From: a virus
Lineage: Duplodnaviria; Heunggongvirae; Uroviricota; Caudoviricetes
Virus record (IMG/VR): IMGVR_UViG_2703718796_000007
Reading direction: 5' to 3' (one strand)
DNA length: 14,877 nt
A program made the translations under genes and the position numbers. Under the pieces are notes generated by a model. It saw only the letters and a list, made by a program, of their open reading frames with translations, was not told the DNA's origin and made no database searches. Below are positions 1,219 to 14,724 of this stretch, one piece after another. The stretch's first letter is position 1; each line of letters opens with the position of its first letter.

Positions 1219-1266
1219 TTTTTTTCGTGTTTTTTCAGTATGCGCATACTGGATAAGTGCACAGAT

Positions 1267-1306
1267 ACAACGTGAAACAATGTGCAACAACGTGACACAA
1301 TCACGA
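1267..1306. repeat. Four phased 10-bp repeats (ACAA-NGTGN-N), two containing AACAACGTG
   Basis: acaacgtgaa / acaatgtgca / acaacgtgac / acaatcacga in tandem with a 10-bp period, about 50 bp after the int stop. The 9-mer is the reverse complement of CACGTTGTT found at 7181-7189 and 14618-14626. Confidence 0.5.
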
Positions 1307-1407
1307 ACAAGAGGCCAAAAAGAATACAGATTTGTAAGTTGCTGATTTTTAATGCTCAGCTGGTTTTTTATACATTAGTGAATTACGCGTTAAAGCGTGC
1401 GAAAAAA

Positions 1408-1430: not shown

Positions 1431-1582
1431 TTTGTATTAACATGAATTTAAATGATTTTATCCTGATTATTCCTCTTTCTGTAAACCATACGACATCAAC
1501 ATTTGCCATTCACCACACTAGCGGGAACAATACGACACAATAAGACACCTGATGACTCTTTAAGAAACGAAAGGGGGCAATA

Positions 1583-4479: not shown

Positions 4480-4779
4480 ATGAAACTTAAATATTCTGGC
4501 TTAACTGCCAGTGGCAACACTCACCCTAAATTTACGCGCGGTGATATTTACCGCGACCAGTACGGCGGCACGGTAATGATTAAGGGCGTGGCGGGACGGT
4601 GCGTAACTTACCGCCGTGAAGGTTACGAATATGATTGCGTGATGCCTGTTTATCAGTTCCGGCGTGATTTTTCTCTGGTACAGGCCGTACCGCGTAACGT
4701 GCCCACCAGCAGGGAGAAAGCACGCGCCAATATTCAGAAGATGAAAAACATGATTAACGGATTCAGGGGCAAGAAATGA
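4480..4779 (+). CDS. Small conserved prophage protein (possibly DUF4222-like)
   Basis: GGAG Shine-Dalgarno 8 nt upstream. RGDIYRDQYGGTVMIKGV...VTYRREGYEYDCVMPVYQF resembles a small family common in enterobacterial prophages; the family name is from memory and tentative. Confidence 0.55.
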   Translation: MKLKYSGLTASGNTHPKFTRGDIYRDQYGGTVMIKGVAGRCVTYRREGYEYDCVMPVYQFRRDFSLVQAVPRNVPTSREKARANIQKMKNMINGFRGKK

Positions 4780-6173
4780 AAAGCGCACCGAACTTAAAAA
4801 AACAGCCTTACGACAAGATGACCGAAGTCATCATTTTTGCGGGTAGTGATGCGTGGGCACATGCGAAACAGTGGCAGGAACAGGACGGGCGACTGGCTGG
4901 CGATAATTTGCCTCCCATTGTGCTGGCTGATGATCAACTGGATGAACTGGCAGACCTGAGAATCATCGACGAGGGGCGCTATTGTGTCCGGCTGTACAAG
5001 GCAGGCCACATCAGGCCATCAAATATTAATGCCATTGCGCACAAGCTGGCGGCGGCGGGCGTAACTGATGCGAATTATTACCCCGAAGGGATACACAGCC
5101 AGAAGCGGGAGAACTGGCGCGAATATCTGGAACGGGAGCGGGGGAAAAAGCCAGGGGAAGAACACCACCAGCGAAAAACCACGCTACCGATGAGCGTTGG
5201 ATCTGCCGGATACGACACGCAATTAGATTACGTGGTAAAGGGGATTATTCCGGCATCGTCGCTATGCAGCATATACGGGGCAAGCGGTTCCTATAAATCA
5301 TTCCTTGCTGGTTCGTGGGCGTGTCACGTTTCCACGGGCCGCCAGTGGGGAGGCCGCAGGGTGGCGCATGGCGCTGTTCTCTATGTGGTTGGTGAAGGCG
5401 GTATCGGCGTTCCGCGTCGTGTAAAAGCCTGGGAGGTTGTGCACGGTGAGCAGGTGAAAAATCTGTATCTGGTAAACCGTCCCATCTTTCCGGCTGTCCC
5501 GCTTGATGTTGATGAACTGGTTATTGCTGCCAGTCAGGTGGAGAGGGAAACGGGTAAACCTGTTCGCATGATTATTCTGGACACGCTGGCGCGCTGCTTT
5601 GGCGGCAATGATGAAAATGACTCCCGCGACATGGGGGCGTTTATCCGTGGGTGTGACGAACTGAAACGACGCACAGGGGCCACGGTGCTGGTGGTTCACC
5701 ATTCCGGCAAGGATGAGACGAAAGGCGCGCGCGGTTCCAGTGCATTTCGTGCATCACTGGATGCTGAATACCGGATACGCAGGGAGGACGCAGGAAGCGA
5801 AGCGCTGGTTATCTCATGCACCAAAATGAAGGACGCGGAGGAACTCAAAGAGGCTGCCTATGATTTGCGGGTGGTGGAGCTTTTTACCGACGCTGACGGG
5901 GAGTTAATCACGTCGCTGGTGGTGGTGGATAAGCCGCGCCCTCCCGTTGAACTGGAGCGCATCGAGGAGGCAGGGAACAAGACGGAAAACCATACCGCGC
6001 TATGGGGGTGCATCCGTTCACGCACACAGAACGGCGACAAGTGCACGATCCCGCTGTTACGTGATGACATGAAAAAACTGGGGTATGAAATGAAAAACTT
6101 CCGGCGCTGGCTGTACAAGCTGGAAAAAGATGGGGTTATTCGTATCGATGGGGATGATGTAGCGCCGCTATAA
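4776..6173 (+). CDS. Replication initiator: RepA-like / AAA_25-type RecA-fold ATPase (helicase loader or helicase) with an N-terminal extension
   Basis: 465 aa. Walker A-like YGASGSYKSFLAG; Walker B MIILDTLARCFGG; the VLVVHHSGKD motif typical of RepA/AAA_25 proteins. Followed immediately by iterons. Confidence 0.85.
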   Translation: MKSAPNLKKQPYDKMTEVIIFAGSDAWAHAKQWQEQDGRLAGDNLPPIVLADDQLDELADLRIIDEGRYCVRLYKAGHIRPSNINAIAHKLAAAGVTDANYYPEGIHSQKRENWREYLERERGKKPGEEHHQRKTTLPMSVGSAGYDTQLDYVVKGIIPASSLCSIYGASGSYKSFLAGSWACHVSTGRQWGGRRVAHGAVLYVVGEGGIGVPRRVKAWEVVHGEQVKNLYLVNRPIFPAVPLDVDELVIAASQVERETGKPVRMIILDTLARCFGGNDENDSRDMGAFIRGCDELKRRTGATVLVVHHSGKDETKGARGSSAFRASLDAEYRIRREDAGSEALVISCTKMKDAEELKEAAYDLRVVELFTDADGELITSLVVVDKPRPPVELERIEEAGNKTENHTALWGCIRSRTQNGDKCTIPLLRDDMKKLGYEMKNFRRWLYKLEKDGVIRIDGDDVAPL

Positions 6174-6364
6174 AAGTGAGGAGCAAAAGCGAGGGGGGTA
6201 GAAAGAGGGCCAAAATTAGCCTGCTCTCCCTCACTTTTCGACCTGTATACATCCTCAAAAGTGAGGGGTAAAAAAATACTTATGAAACACACGCATAGAA
6301 AAACCAAAAATCCCAACTGCGACGAAGTGAGACGCTTGAAAAAGTGAGGCGAAAAAGTGAGAGG
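6172..6364. repeat. Iteron-type replication origin: at least six copies of AAAAGTGAGG-like repeats in both orientations flanking an A-rich segment
   Basis: Copies at 6172-6181, 6185-6194 (aaaagcgagg), 6229-6238 (inverted), 6257-6266, 6340-6349 and 6353-6364, plus a degenerate gaagtgaga at 6324-6332. A-rich stretch at 6268-6312. Position directly 3' of the rep gene is typical of satellite origins. Confidence 0.65.
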
Positions 6365-6936: not shown

Positions 6937-7098
6937 ATGACAGCACAAATTGCAGCTTACGGGCGGCTGGTGGACGACCCGCAGGTAAAACAGAGCAGCA
7001 AGGGCACACCGGAGCCGCCAACGGAGAACTACGCAGACCTGAGAAATGCAGTAAATCGCACTTACGCAGACATGGGGCTGAGCAAATTAGCAGAGTAG
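6937..7098 (+). CDS. 53-aa ORF whose N-terminus resembles the start of SSB-type OB-fold proteins (possible remnant)
   Basis: Strong RBS (GAGGTGG, 4 nt, ATG). IAAYGRLVDDPQVK parallels the SSB N-terminal pattern hhGxLxxDPxV[RK], but the ORF is far too short for an OB fold. Absent from the ORF track because it is under 60 aa. Confidence 0.35.
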   Translation: MTAQIAAYGRLVDDPQVKQSSKGTPEPPTENYADLRNAVNRTYADMGLSKLAE

Positions 7099-7120: not shown

Positions 7121-7150
7121 AGCCGGAGCAATCCGGCTTTTTGTTATTTT
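7121..7150 (+). terminator. Rho-independent terminator closing the early/replication operon
   Basis: AGCCGGA-gcaa-TCCGGCT followed by TTTTTGTTATTTTTT. Confidence 0.7.
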
Positions 7151-7263
7151 TTGTAAATTATTTGTTCGTGGTTGTTCCACGTTGTTCACTGAGCGGATCG
7201 GCATATTTTACCCGAACTGAATCATGATTATTCTCGCCCGTGGTGCCAGGACGCTGGGGCCAC

Positions 7264-7311
7264 TTTCCCGCCTGTTAATGTGCCCGCCAATATTCATTAC
7301 CAGGCGGGAAA
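7264..7311. promoter_or_regulatory. 11-bp perfect inverted repeat with a 26-bp spacer, upstream of the head operon
   Basis: TTTCCCGCCTG (7264-7274) and CAGGCGGGAAA (7301-7311). Confidence 0.4.
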
Positions 7312-7364
7312 ACGATCGGTGCGATTGCTGATTTCCTTATGAAAAACGGTTGAGTGTTTGCCGC

Positions 7365-7402
7365 GTCCTGGAGTTCCTTACTTAACCCCAGGACTTTTTT
7401 TT
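7365..7402 (+). terminator. Hairpin plus T8 tract abutting the capsid start codon; terminator- or attenuator-like, and sequesters the capsid Shine-Dalgarno
   Basis: GTCCTGG (7365-7371) pairs with CCAGGAC (7388-7394) across a 16-nt loop; T8 at 7395-7402; ATG at 7403. The AGGA at 7390-7393 lies in the 3' arm of the stem. Confidence 0.4.
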
Positions 7403-8560
7403 ATGCCGAGAATAATCGAATTACGCCAGCAGAAAACCGCCATTAAAAATCAGATGCGCGACATGCTGGAGAACGCTGAAAAAGAAAACCGCAGTCTTAA
7501 CGATGCTGAGGGCGCAAAATTTGACGAATTACGCGCTAAAGCTGAATCCCTCGATAAAGACATTTCCCGCCTTGAAGCCATTGCAGACGAAGAGCGCAGC
7601 AAGCCAGGTAAAAGCAGTCAGACCACTGACCCCGCAGAACTACGAAACTACATTCTGACGGGTGAAACCCGCGCATTAAGTACAGGCGTTCCCGCTGATG
7701 GTGGTTATACCGTTATCCCCGAACTGAACACCGAAATCATGCGAATGCTGGCGGATGAATCCACCATGCGCCGCATCTGTACCGTGAAGAAAATCAGCAG
7801 CAACGAGTTTAAGCAGCTTGTTTCCGCTGGCGGTGCGACCGTTAACCACGGTGAAGAGGGTAAGGCACGCGAACAGACCAGCACCCCGCAGATTAACGAG
7901 GTGAGCATTAAGCTGTATCCGGTCTATGCGTACCCGCGCACCACACAGGAAATCGTGGATTTTTCCGATGTGGACATCCTTTCATGGCTGACGGGCGAGA
8001 TTGGCGACACCTTCACGGAAACCGAAGAAAGCGATCTGGTTGTGGGCGACGGTGACAAAAAAGCAAAAGGCTTTTTATCCGTACCCCGTGCAGAGAAGAA
8101 CGACAAAGAGCGTGATTTTGGTACGTTGCAGGTAATTAAACCTTCCGAATCTCTGGCGTGGACATCTGCGGACCCGCTGATCGACCTGAAATTTGCATTA
8201 CGTAAAAAATACCGCAAGAACGCGGTATGGGTGGTTAACTCCACGACGGCGGCAAAACTCCAGAAGGTGAAGAATGCGAACGGGGATTATATATGGCGTG
8301 ACCGTTTACAGGCGGGTGATCCTGATACGTTGCTGGGCCTTCCGGTCGAATATCTGGAGTTTATGCCGGATAACGTTATTGCCCTGGGCGACTTTAAACG
8401 CGGTTACTACATCGTTGATCACGAAACAGGTGTTCGCACCAGACCGGACAACCTGACAGAACCAGGATTCATCAAAATTTTCACGCAAAAATATTTAGGC
8501 GGTGGCGTGGTGGATTCGAACGCGATCAAGATTCTGGAACTGCCACAGGACGACGATTAA
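7403..8560 (+). CDS. Major capsid protein, HK97 fold, with an N-terminal coiled-coil (scaffold-like delta) region
   Basis: 385 aa. N-terminal about 100 residues are charged and coiled-coil-like (ELRQQKTAIKNQMRDMLENAEKE...); the body contains VVGDGDKKAKGFL, matching the HK97 MCP family motif NGDGTG..L.GL. ATG at 7403 preferred over the TTG at 7358. Confidence 0.85.
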   Translation: MPRIIELRQQKTAIKNQMRDMLENAEKENRSLNDAEGAKFDELRAKAESLDKDISRLEAIADEERSKPGKSSQTTDPAELRNYILTGETRALSTGVPADGGYTVIPELNTEIMRMLADESTMRRICTVKKISSNEFKQLVSAGGATVNHGEEGKAREQTSTPQINEVSIKLYPVYAYPRTTQEIVDFSDVDILSWLTGEIGDTFTETEESDLVVGDGDKKAKGFLSVPRAEKNDKERDFGTLQVIKPSESLAWTSADPLIDLKFALRKKYRKNAVWVVNSTTAAKLQKVKNANGDYIWRDRLQAGDPDTLLGLPVEYLEFMPDNVIALGDFKRGYYIVDHETGVRTRPDNLTEPGFIKIFTQKYLGGGVVDSNAIKILELPQDDD

Positions 8561-8570
8561 CAGCATACAG

Positions 8571-8600
8571 AAGGGGCTAAAAAGCCCCTTTAGTGTTTTA
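8571..8600 (+). terminator. Hairpin with weak T-tract between the capsid and protease genes (possible partial terminator)
   Basis: AAGGGGCT-aaaa-AGCCCCTT followed by tagtgtttta. Confidence 0.45.
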
Positions 8601-9174: not shown

Positions 9175-10386
9175 ATGTGGCCTTTCAGAAGAAAAAAAGA
9201 GCAGCGCAGCATGACGCTTGATGAATTTATGGCGCTGGCTGGCACATCGAACACGGGGGCGGGTGAGTACGTATCATCGGGGACAGCGGAATCACTGCCC
9301 GCCGTCATGAACGCCGTCACGGTCATCTCTGAGGCGGTGGCTACCATGCCGTGTTACCTGTACCTGGTACGCAATGAGAAGGGGAAGGAGGCCCGCGAGT
9401 GGCTTGATTCTCATCCGGTCGATCACATCCTCAACGAGCGCCCGAACGCATGGCAAACCCCCTACCAGTTTAAGCGAATGATGATCCGCCACTGCCTGTT
9501 AAACGGTAATGCTTATGCGGTGATTCAGTGGGGGCGTGATGGTTTTCCGGCGGCTTTACATCCTTACCCGCCGCAGTCGGTGAACGTGGAGCAGACAGGA
9601 GAACACAACTGGCGCTATTGCATCACTGACGCCTACACCGGAAACACCCGCAACTATTTACCGTGGGAAGTACTTCACCTTCGTTACTCCACGGATGACG
9701 GCTTTATGGGGCGCTCACCTGTAACCATCTGCCGCGAATCGCTGGGGCTTGGGCTGGCCCAACAACGCCACGGCGCGAGCGTGATGCGTGATGGCATGAT
9801 GGCGGCAGGGGTTATCACGTCAGGCGAATGGCTGGACGGCGTGAAAGGCAAACAGGCATTAGCCGCACTGGAACGCTACAAAGGGGCCAGAAACGCCGGA
9901 AAAACGCCCATCCTTGAAGGGGGCATGAGTTACCAGCAGCTGGGCATGAGTAACCAGGACGCCGAATGGCTGGCCTCCCGTCGCTTCACCATTGAAGACA
10001 TCGCCCGAATGTTCAACGTCTCGCCGATTTTTCTGCAGGAATACAGCAACAGCACCTACAGCAATTTCAGCGAGGCAAGCCGCGCATTTCTCACCATGAC
10101 GATGCGCCCGTGGCTGGCGAACTTTGAGCAGCAGATAAAAAACGCCTTGCTGGTGGTCTCGCCTGTACCTGGTATCCGGTATCAGGTGGAGTTTGACAGC
10201 GCGGACCTGTTACGGGCCACACCTGGCGAACGCTTTGCCACCTATGAGCGAGGCATCAAATCCGGTGTTATGTGCCCGAACGAAGCCCGCGAACGAGAAG
10301 GGTTGTCTCCGCGTGATGGTGGTGATGAGTTCAGCCAGGCATGGAAACAGGAAGTAAAAATCAGCGAGGGAGAAAAACCGGAATGA
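9175..10386 (+). CDS. Portal protein, HK97 family
   Basis: 403 aa; size, position and composition fit phage portal proteins. GGGGG Shine-Dalgarno 6 nt upstream; 2-nt gap after the protease stop. Confidence 0.8.
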   Translation: MWPFRRKKEQRSMTLDEFMALAGTSNTGAGEYVSSGTAESLPAVMNAVTVISEAVATMPCYLYLVRNEKGKEAREWLDSHPVDHILNERPNAWQTPYQFKRMMIRHCLLNGNAYAVIQWGRDGFPAALHPYPPQSVNVEQTGEHNWRYCITDAYTGNTRNYLPWEVLHLRYSTDDGFMGRSPVTICRESLGLGLAQQRHGASVMRDGMMAAGVITSGEWLDGVKGKQALAALERYKGARNAGKTPILEGGMSYQQLGMSNQDAEWLASRRFTIEDIARMFNVSPIFLQEYSNSTYSNFSEASRAFLTMTMRPWLANFEQQIKNALLVVSPVPGIRYQVEFDSADLLRATPGERFATYERGIKSGVMCPNEAREREGLSPRDGGDEFSQAWKQEVKISEGEKPE

Positions 10387-14302: not shown

Positions 14303-14608
14303 GACCATGAAATTACGGAAACTACCCGTAGTTTGGGTAGTAAGAGCAACACCCAGATTTTGGGGCTTACTCGTGATACCCAAATTTGGGGTATCGGCGG
14401 CAACCATAACGACTTTCGTTACGGTTGATGCTTTTACCCCATTGAGGGAAAGGTATTACGATAATCATAACACCTACCGAACAGGTAAAGCCCACCAGCC
14501 TGATTAACTGTTAACCGGAAAAAAATTCCGGTAGGGTTCCCGATATGGGAATCCCCATATCGACAGCAACGCCCCCTTAAAATTACCCGCCTTTATATTT
14601 CTTGTGCC

Positions 14609-14626
14609 TATTTGTTCCACGTTGTT
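14609..14626. repeat. 18-bp motif TATTTGTTCCACGTTGTT, also present at 7159..7189 with a 9-bp internal insertion
   Basis: Direct comparison: 7159-7189 is tatttgttc[gtggttgtt]ccacgttgttcac; 14609-14626 is tatttgttccacgttgtt. Confidence 0.7.
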
Positions 14627-14724
14627 TCATACAGTGCGCCGAACGGTGTAGTCACTGGTGTAGTTATTTTGAGTTTTTTTGCACTTCGGGCTTAATTGAA
14701 AATATAATTAAATCAATATGTTAT

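Follow-up and report, generated by a model that had tools for sequence, protein, structure and literature searches.

The DNA analysed here, a stretch of 14,877 nucleotides filed as the virus record IMGVR_UViG_2703718796_000007 (the window, meaning the whole of this stretch), is a phage satellite of E. coli, a capsid-forming phage-inducible chromosomal island (cf-PICI) of the EcCIEDL933 type. It codes for an integrase, AlpA and a primase, followed by an HK97-type capsid protein, a protease, a portal, connectors, an HNH protein and the small and large terminases (TerS and TerL); tail and lysis genes are lacking. Both the gene set and its order match the description of EcCIEDL933 (10.1101/2022.09.08.507074). 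The gene for the major capsid protein (7403-8560, + strand) is the first of the packaging operon; its HK97-fold product matched Pfam family PF05065 (Phage_capsid) with E = 1.6e-61, and the same annotation is found in the RefSeq relatives. We describe here a hairpin that abuts the start codon of this gene, termed H3, together with the leader that it closes.

A hairpin at the start of the capsid gene

H3 occupies positions 7365-7394 of the + strand. A preliminary description of the window had placed a GTCCTGG/CCAGGAC stem, a run of eight T residues and an ATG directly before the capsid gene, and reading of the sequence confirmed this arrangement: GTCCTGG (7365-7371) pairs with CCAGGAC (7388-7394), the U8 tract (7395-7402, + strand) starts at the base after the stem, and the capsid ATG (7403-7405) abuts the tract. 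The hairpin had also been described as having a 7-bp stem and a 16-nucleotide loop. The 7 bp stand, whereas the loop is not free but partly paired, as 3 more bp form past an A.C mismatch and leave a loop of 8 nucleotides. An inverted-repeat search returned arms of 11 nucleotides (7365-7375 and 7384-7394), 91% complementary and 8 nucleotides apart. The folding energy lies between -12.7 and -14.1 kcal/mol; RNAfold gave -14.1 kcal/mol with z = -2.48, and 5 out of 200 shuffled sequences were equally stable. The motif AGGA (7390-7393, + strand), 9 nucleotides upstream of the ATG, pairs with UCCU (7366-7369) within H3. As had been proposed, it is the sole purine-rich candidate for a Shine-Dalgarno (SD) sequence in the final 25 nucleotides before the ATG, and it lies within the 3' arm.

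Perfect stems of at least 7 bp with a loop of 3-20 nucleotides end at 0.37% of the + strand positions of the window, and the same strand has four T runs of at least seven residues. Thus, about 0.015 coincidences of a stem with a T run are expected by chance, and one was seen. The length of the tract is polymorphic: among all 31 loci of the E. coli lineage, T7 was found in 24 and T8 in 7, which shows that the tract is non-coding. An in-frame TTG at 7358 is ruled out as the capsid start, since the T7/T8 polymorphism would shift the frame. The polymorphism itself is of the kind expected from homopolymer slippage, and both lengths give a workable distance between the SD and the AUG. The tract could serve as the tail of a terminator, as the spacer between the SD and the AUG, or as both.

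Relatives were collected from genomes, metagenomes and viral contigs (173 loci), and their regions upstream of the capsid gene comprised 139 distinct sequences. All the enterobacterial lineages have a hairpin of -13 to -16 kcal/mol that ends 1-11 nucleotides before the start codon. The stems found at this position are unrelated between lineages (GTCCTGG/CCAGGAC, TGGTTTC/GAAACCA and CTGCATG/CATGCAG), and the variation within lineages consists of G.U or compensatory changes, which points to an RNA made from this strand. Pairing is kept in this manner in class B variants, and kept or strengthened in the relatives L104 and L044, although the independent events are few. In L104, two changes in the loop give H3 11 contiguous bp, and L044 has a 10-bp stem, the upper part of which differs in sequence. 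The 5' arm of H3 together with 6 flanking nucleotides is identical between L044 and the window, in leaders that are otherwise 62-82% identical. Pieces of the loop (CGTC...CTTAAC) are common to several lineages but are paired differently, suggesting that H3 has been rebuilt rather than simply inherited. The stems cannot be aligned by sequence; H3 was not recovered as a consensus helix by MAFFT and RNAalifold, and was therefore tabulated by script. The capsid gene of L044 is a mosaic: in the alignment of L044 1012-1270 with window 7403-7660, the first 255 nucleotides or so, which code for a scaffold-like N-terminal region, are 88-100% identical, and identity drops to about 60% over the remainder of the gene.

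H3 could in principle be incidental, a piece of local sequence such as an SD and its inverted copy that was inherited by descent and has no regulatory role. The modest local z-score (-2.48) is consistent with this, as are the near-invariance of the stem in the E. coli lineage, which leaves little room for covariation, and the existence of AT-rich relatives devoid of the hairpin. Against it stand the three unrelated stems at one and the same position across lineages, the compensatory or G.U changes in L044, L104 and class B, and the conservation of the 5' arm inside a diverged linker, together with the chance expectation of 0.015; an incidental origin is, in our view, improbable. We conclude that H3 is a selected RNA structure. 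Moreover, its most likely role is to restrict expression of the capsid gene in cis.

The predicted promoter and the structured leader

The 250 bp upstream of the capsid gene had been depicted as a dense control region, and this view holds: besides a conserved promoter and two more conserved hairpins, phased repeats and a terminator with an insulating role were found there. A canonical intrinsic terminator (7121-7149, + strand; stem at 7121-7138 plus a T-rich tail), detected by a terminator scan and scored at d = +37 with the formula given below, ends a PerC-like unit and insulates the capsid promoter. It has an equivalent in every lineage, either at the same place or in the stretch from the repeats to the -10 element. 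It is followed by a TTTTGTAAATTAT head and the phased 10-bp repeats TTGTTCGTGG, TTGTTCCACG and TTGTTCAC (7149-7189, + strand), roughly 91 to 51 bp upstream of the predicted transcription start; these repeats are candidates for upstream activator sites or for curved DNA. The repeated motif noted earlier at 7159-7189 is real and forms part of a phased 10-bp TTGTnn array (7151-7189). The TTTTGTAAATTAT head and phased T-rich units of 10-11 bp were found in almost all of the 139 distinct relatives.

A promoter of the sigma70 type is predicted for the packaging operon at 7207-7234 (+ strand), with a -35 element TTTACC (7207-7212), a 16-nucleotide spacer, a -10 element TATTCT (7229-7234) and a start at about 7240. 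It fell below the threshold of a simple promoter scan. In 82 distinct sequences, however, elements of this type (-35 TTTAC or TTTTC, a 16-nucleotide spacer, and a -10 TATnTT ending 5 nucleotides before the first hairpin of the leader, H1) are found at a fixed distance from H1. In some relatives, the gene upstream is transcribed divergently, so that a promoter must lie in the gap before the capsid gene.

Arrays of TTGTnC decamers in a 10-bp phase also occur elsewhere in the window. They were found at 1263-1312 (- strand), 1449-1481 (+), 1525-1550 (-), 7149-7189 (+) and 14591-14630 (+), that is, after the integrase stop codon, upstream of both alpA and the capsid promoter, and beside the right end. 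The pattern has 14 matches in the window against 2.2 expected, and none of 200 shuffled sequences had as many. The segments 7154-7186 and 14594-14626 are 79% identical, and the same arrays are present in other elements of the E. coli lineage with different int and alpA alleles. Candidates for a protein that binds them include AlpA and the arm domain of the integrase; for AlpA the link is hypothetical, as the array of class C elements is confined to the capsid promoter, with none near int/alpA or at the right end. A role as iterons of a replication origin is ruled out, since the iterons of the window have another sequence (AAAAGTGAGG, at 6172-6356).

From the predicted start at about 7240, H3 is the last element of a structured leader of some 163 nucleotides, after two hairpins, H1 and H2, and a linker. 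For the leader as a whole, the folding energy is -67.9 kcal/mol (z = -4.7), and none of 200 shuffled sequences was as stable. H1 (7240-7263, + strand), the 5'-terminal hairpin, has the form GTGGTGCCAG-GACG-CTGGGGCCAC, with GACG as the loop. H2 (7264-7311, + strand) is a long hairpin with a 14-nucleotide loop; it corresponds to an inverted repeat reported before, which proved real, with arms of 17 nucleotides that are 94% complementary. When 20 diverse leaders were analysed with RNAalifold, pairs in the upper stem of H1 showed changes on both sides in 3-5 sequences per pair, and compensatory changes in H2 reached 9 of the 20 sequences per pair. H1 nonetheless exists in only a few sequence types across relatives, GTGGCACTCAGACGTGAGCCGCCAC being present in more than 75 distinct leaders, whereas the sequence of H2 is wholly different between lineages. 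That H1 is near-invariant while its neighbour changes completely suggests that H1 is recognized in a sequence-specific manner, whether in the RNA or, at +1 to +25, in the DNA. No Rfam family matched the leader or H3. Searches for similar leaders matched cf-PICI-like records only, and none in true phages. Term searches of the cf-PICI papers found no promoter, leader or terminator of the packaging operon described.

H1 and H2 raise the possibility that the leader is a self-contained RNA switch, in which they override H3 in cis, either through a put-like modification of RNA polymerase or through pairing of CCAGGACGC with GCGTCCTGG, which would free the SD and block the terminator. H1 and H2 abut and span +1 to +72 (7240-7311), upstream of a terminator, and so resemble in position and size the putL RNA of HK022, which consists of two stem-loops of about 72 nucleotides at the 5' end of the transcript (PMC9378689). 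The near-invariance of H1 and the strong covariation of H2 also fit a switch. Moreover, the CCAGGACGC segment of H1 (7246-7254) is complementary to GCGTCCTGG (7363-7371) at the 5' arm of H3, and this complementarity recurs with other bases, in four families in all, including AGACGUGA/UCACGUCU in class B and GACGGGA/UCCCGUC in the L046 type. However, the H1:H3 duplexes had no energetic advantage over controls with a shuffled H1, and the alternative fold lies 3.5-9.3 kcal/mol above the minimum-energy fold. The pairing of H1 with H3 was thus kept as a low-probability lead only. The stem sizes of H1 and H2 (24 and 48 nucleotides) differ from those of the HK022 put RNA, and most relatives lack a leader terminator that could be overridden. 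No similarity of H1 and H2 to putL and putR was apparent by eye, no alignment against H1/H2 having been run, while putL and putR align with each other; homology to put RNA was rejected for this reason. Altogether, a switch of this kind appears decidedly doubtful. An attenuator of the trp or pyrBI type, based on a leader peptide, was also rejected, as the sole mini-open reading frame (7339-7353, MKNG*) lacks an SD and is not preserved in L044.

Possible termination, probable masking of the ribosome site and their relief

To assess termination, a formula of the d'Aubenton-Carafa type, which combines the hairpin energy per nucleotide with a U-tract score, was applied to each T-run of the window on either strand. 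H3 with its T8 tract scored d = +21.3, the fourth-best site on the two strands; the T7 variant scored +14, and the H3 variants of L104 and L044 scored +20 and +25.5, respectively. H3 is a stable, GC-containing hairpin with a short loop, and the U8 tract runs from the first base after the stem. Judged by its anatomy, H3 with T8 is a credible intrinsic terminator for E. coli. It had been suggested that the hairpin terminates read-through from upstream. The terminator anatomy stands, but the role as a barrier does not: the canonical terminator at 7121-7138 already stops such read-through, and H3 lies in the leader of the operon's own promoter. The λ tR' terminator, after PR', and the leader of the E. 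coli S10 operon are intrinsic-terminator attenuators placed before the first gene of an operon. Like these and like the tB terminator before alpB of P. aeruginosa (PMC7969949), H3 combines a GC-containing hairpin with a perfect U-tract and lies between a dedicated promoter and the first cistron, so that a short leader RNA would be the default product. H3 differs from them in that we found neither an antiterminator nor a loading site nor a leader peptide, and in that its U-tract is also the spacer between the SD and the AUG, abuts the start codon and is restricted to one lineage.

The preliminary description had further proposed that the hairpin masks the ribosome-binding site, and the folding calculations support this. 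Opening of the capsid ribosome site (-18 to +12) has a computed cost of about 14.5 kcal/mol, among the highest of the genes in the window, and the only SD is sequestered. Other genes with a high cost (the portal and HNH genes) overlap or abut the preceding open reading frame, unlike the capsid gene, which is the first cistron after an intergenic gap of about 300 nucleotides; an upstream ribosome therefore cannot open H3. In this respect, H3 resembles the SD-sequestering operator hairpins of phage and bacterial mRNAs, in which a stable local hairpin takes up the SD in its 3' arm, ahead of an uncoupled first cistron. As in such operators, the AGGA is paired, here with UCCU, at an opening cost of 14.5 kcal/mol, the pairing is kept through compensatory change, and relatives have positional equivalents with other sequences. 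In contrast to these operators, no repressor, activator, small RNA or temperature dependence is known for H3, a hairpin of -14 kcal/mol is too stable to melt on its own, and the gene that it precedes encodes the most abundant structural protein. We found no trans-acting factor or switch that opens or closes H3, and the H1:H3 alternative was no better than controls.

As a kind of element, then, H3 is ordinary: a leader attenuator combined with an SD-sequestering hairpin. The reading that we favor, with a probability of about 0.5, is that H3 has both functions, being a transcription attenuator and a mask over the SD, and thus a negative leader element acting in cis. The mRNA of the packaging operon would start at its own promoter, at about 7240, with H3 at the 3' end of an untranslated leader of about 163 nucleotides. 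H3 and the perfect run of 7 or 8 U residues would form an intrinsic terminator, and many transcripts would stop just short of the capsid AUG. In those that read through, the same stem would pair the only SD (AGGA) and lower the initiation of translation. The output of capsid protein would then be set by the firing of the leader promoter after induction of the island and by whatever prevents H3 from forming. Masking of the SD would be common to all the enterobacterial lineages, and termination would be an addition of the E. coli lineage.

Several observations weigh against this dual function. The promoter at 7207-7234 and the start at about 7240 are predictions from sequence. A simple terminator scan of the window does not call H3 with T8, which we attribute to the single mismatch in the stem. 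In classes B, C, E and F, the equivalent hairpin is followed by 1-11 nucleotides that are not U-rich, and no terminator-like site was found between the predicted start and the ATG. The E. coli lineage and L044 combine the hairpin with a U-tract, and L044 is possibly recombinant: as the adjoining first 255 nucleotides of its capsid gene are 88-100% identical to those of the window, recombination may account for the conservation of the 3' arm and of U8. With the U-tract missing in most related lineages, termination cannot be the conserved function of the H3 position; at most, it is peculiar to the E. coli lineage. In AT-rich lineages the leader is short and unstructured and has neither hairpin nor SD, which indicates that the element is not essential to the family. 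Finally, the capsid protein is required in large amounts, so that a double block needs a mechanism of relief, and none was found.

The same observations bear on a simpler proposal, that H3 is only a translational operator or mRNA-structure element, which may stabilize or shape the leader, while the U8 is a favorable spacer at which little termination occurs. The feature conserved across enterobacterial lineages is the hairpin abutting the start codon and not the U-tract, AGGA-N9-AUG is a well-spaced ribosome site in which the T7/T8 polymorphism is tolerated, and the simple terminator scan passes over H3 with T8. Yet a perfect run of 7 or 8 U residues right after a hairpin of -13 to -16 kcal/mol is the defining anatomy of an intrinsic terminator in E. 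coli and scores above zero, and the stems of L104 and L044 are the more terminator-like. We regard a role in translation only as rather unlikely.

A further claim was that the head genes stay silent until an antiterminator, activator or RNA chaperone supplied by the helper phage relieves the terminator and the SD mask. The anatomy of H3 is compatible with such a factor, and helper phages do control the island, though through induction of alpA (PMC6092414). The claim did not find support: a preprint on cf-PICIs states that their tail-less capsids are made without a helper phage (10.1101/2025.02.11.637232), no antiterminator was identified, and the leader is absent from real phages. The leader also lacks loading features of the Q type. 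The antiterminator of P. aeruginosa named "AlpA" is an eight-helix, Q21-like factor with a binding element in the interval from the -35 to the -10 element (PMC7969949, PMC9371919). Across the relatives of the window, the spacer between these two elements (CGAACTGAATCATGAT) is not conserved. The region from +1 to +25, which is the GC-rich H1, has no TATAAT-like hexamer that could act as a -10-like pause signal, and the P. aeruginosa AlpA motif GGGACGN5GGTA is absent. No homolog of Q or of P. aeruginosa AlpA was found encoded nearby. The AlpA of the island shares only its name with the latter: it is a 62-residue, Xis-like PF05930 protein without detectable similarity to it, a PDB search with the PF05930 AlpA matched 8c3t only, and a role for it as the antiterminator was rejected. 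In elements of the EcCIEDL933 type, AlpA is the master activator induced by the helper, and the window is an element of the same kind. Relief of H3 by a factor encoded by the helper is thus highly unlikely.

The rest of the island and the timing of capsid synthesis

The other genes were assigned with Pfam, and all lie on the + strand. They code for a tyrosine integrase (1-1218), the AlpA-family regulator of 62 residues (1583-1771; PF05930), a primase-type AAA protein (4776-6173) and a PerC-like remnant (6937-7098). Downstream of the capsid gene are those for the prohead protease, the portal (9175-10386), a head-completion protein, a connector, the HNH protein, a P27-type small terminase and the large terminase. 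A locus in E. coli 2015C-3121 that is 99.7% identical to the window has the same RefSeq annotation. The PerC-family open reading frame, just upstream of the capsid control region, has 53 residues, against 82 in the closest RefSeq relative; a truncation or the use of another start may explain the difference.

Three direct copies of AAAAGTGAGG(N)AAAA, at 6172, 6257 and 6340, are found right after the primase gene, with an inverted copy near 6229-6240; the region 6172-6356 is probably the replication origin of the island. At the same place, the iterons of the class B element L174 are different (GTGTTCACC). This element (LR881103), deposited as a "phage" record of 16.5 kb, is actually a packaged cf-PICI genome. 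As the packaged record begins 22 bp before terS, the cos packaging site lies at the junction of hnh and terS, which rules out the capsid leader as cos. Three pairs of long direct repeats, 84-89% identical (2208-2281/2892-2965, 2517-2562/3288-3333 and 14032-14097/14164-14229), are located in the early region and downstream of the large terminase gene; Ash and Icd-like pseudogenes annotated in the early region of a near-identical RefSeq locus suggest that segments were duplicated there. A GC-rich hairpin (GGGGCTAAAAAGCCCC, about 8566-8600), of about -15 kcal/mol and with an interrupted T-run, lies 3' of the capsid stop codon. Its terminator score is -4.4; partial termination at this hairpin may determine how much capsid protein is made relative to the later proteins.

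The 361 bp around H3 are present in 420 of 5,426 complete E. coli genomes, and 358 of the 5,426 (about 7%) have a near-full-length match. The boldest view of the leader is that, at some 130-165 nucleotides, it represents an undescribed cis-regulatory RNA of enterobacterial cf-PICIs in which H1 and H2 override H3, and which in E. coli would yield by default an RNA of about 160 nucleotides with an Hfq-type 3' end, possibly a small RNA. We consider this quite improbable. A sequence search of the supplements of a study in O157 (Tree et al., PMC4104026) yielded no matching Hfq-bound small RNA. If this view were true, the satellite would time capsid synthesis by itself, with no factor from the helper.

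Capsid-forming PICIs make capsids of their own and release tail-less particles even with no helper present. How the packaging operon is switched on is not described in the cf-PICI papers covered by our term searches, and a predicted promoter, a structured leader and a terminator-like hairpin that appears to mask the SD can now be placed before the capsid gene. If H3 attenuates transcription, a small RNA may also arise from the leader, which about 7% of complete E. coli genomes (358/5,426) carry. A cis element in front of the capsid gene offers a concrete handle on the timing and the level of capsid production.

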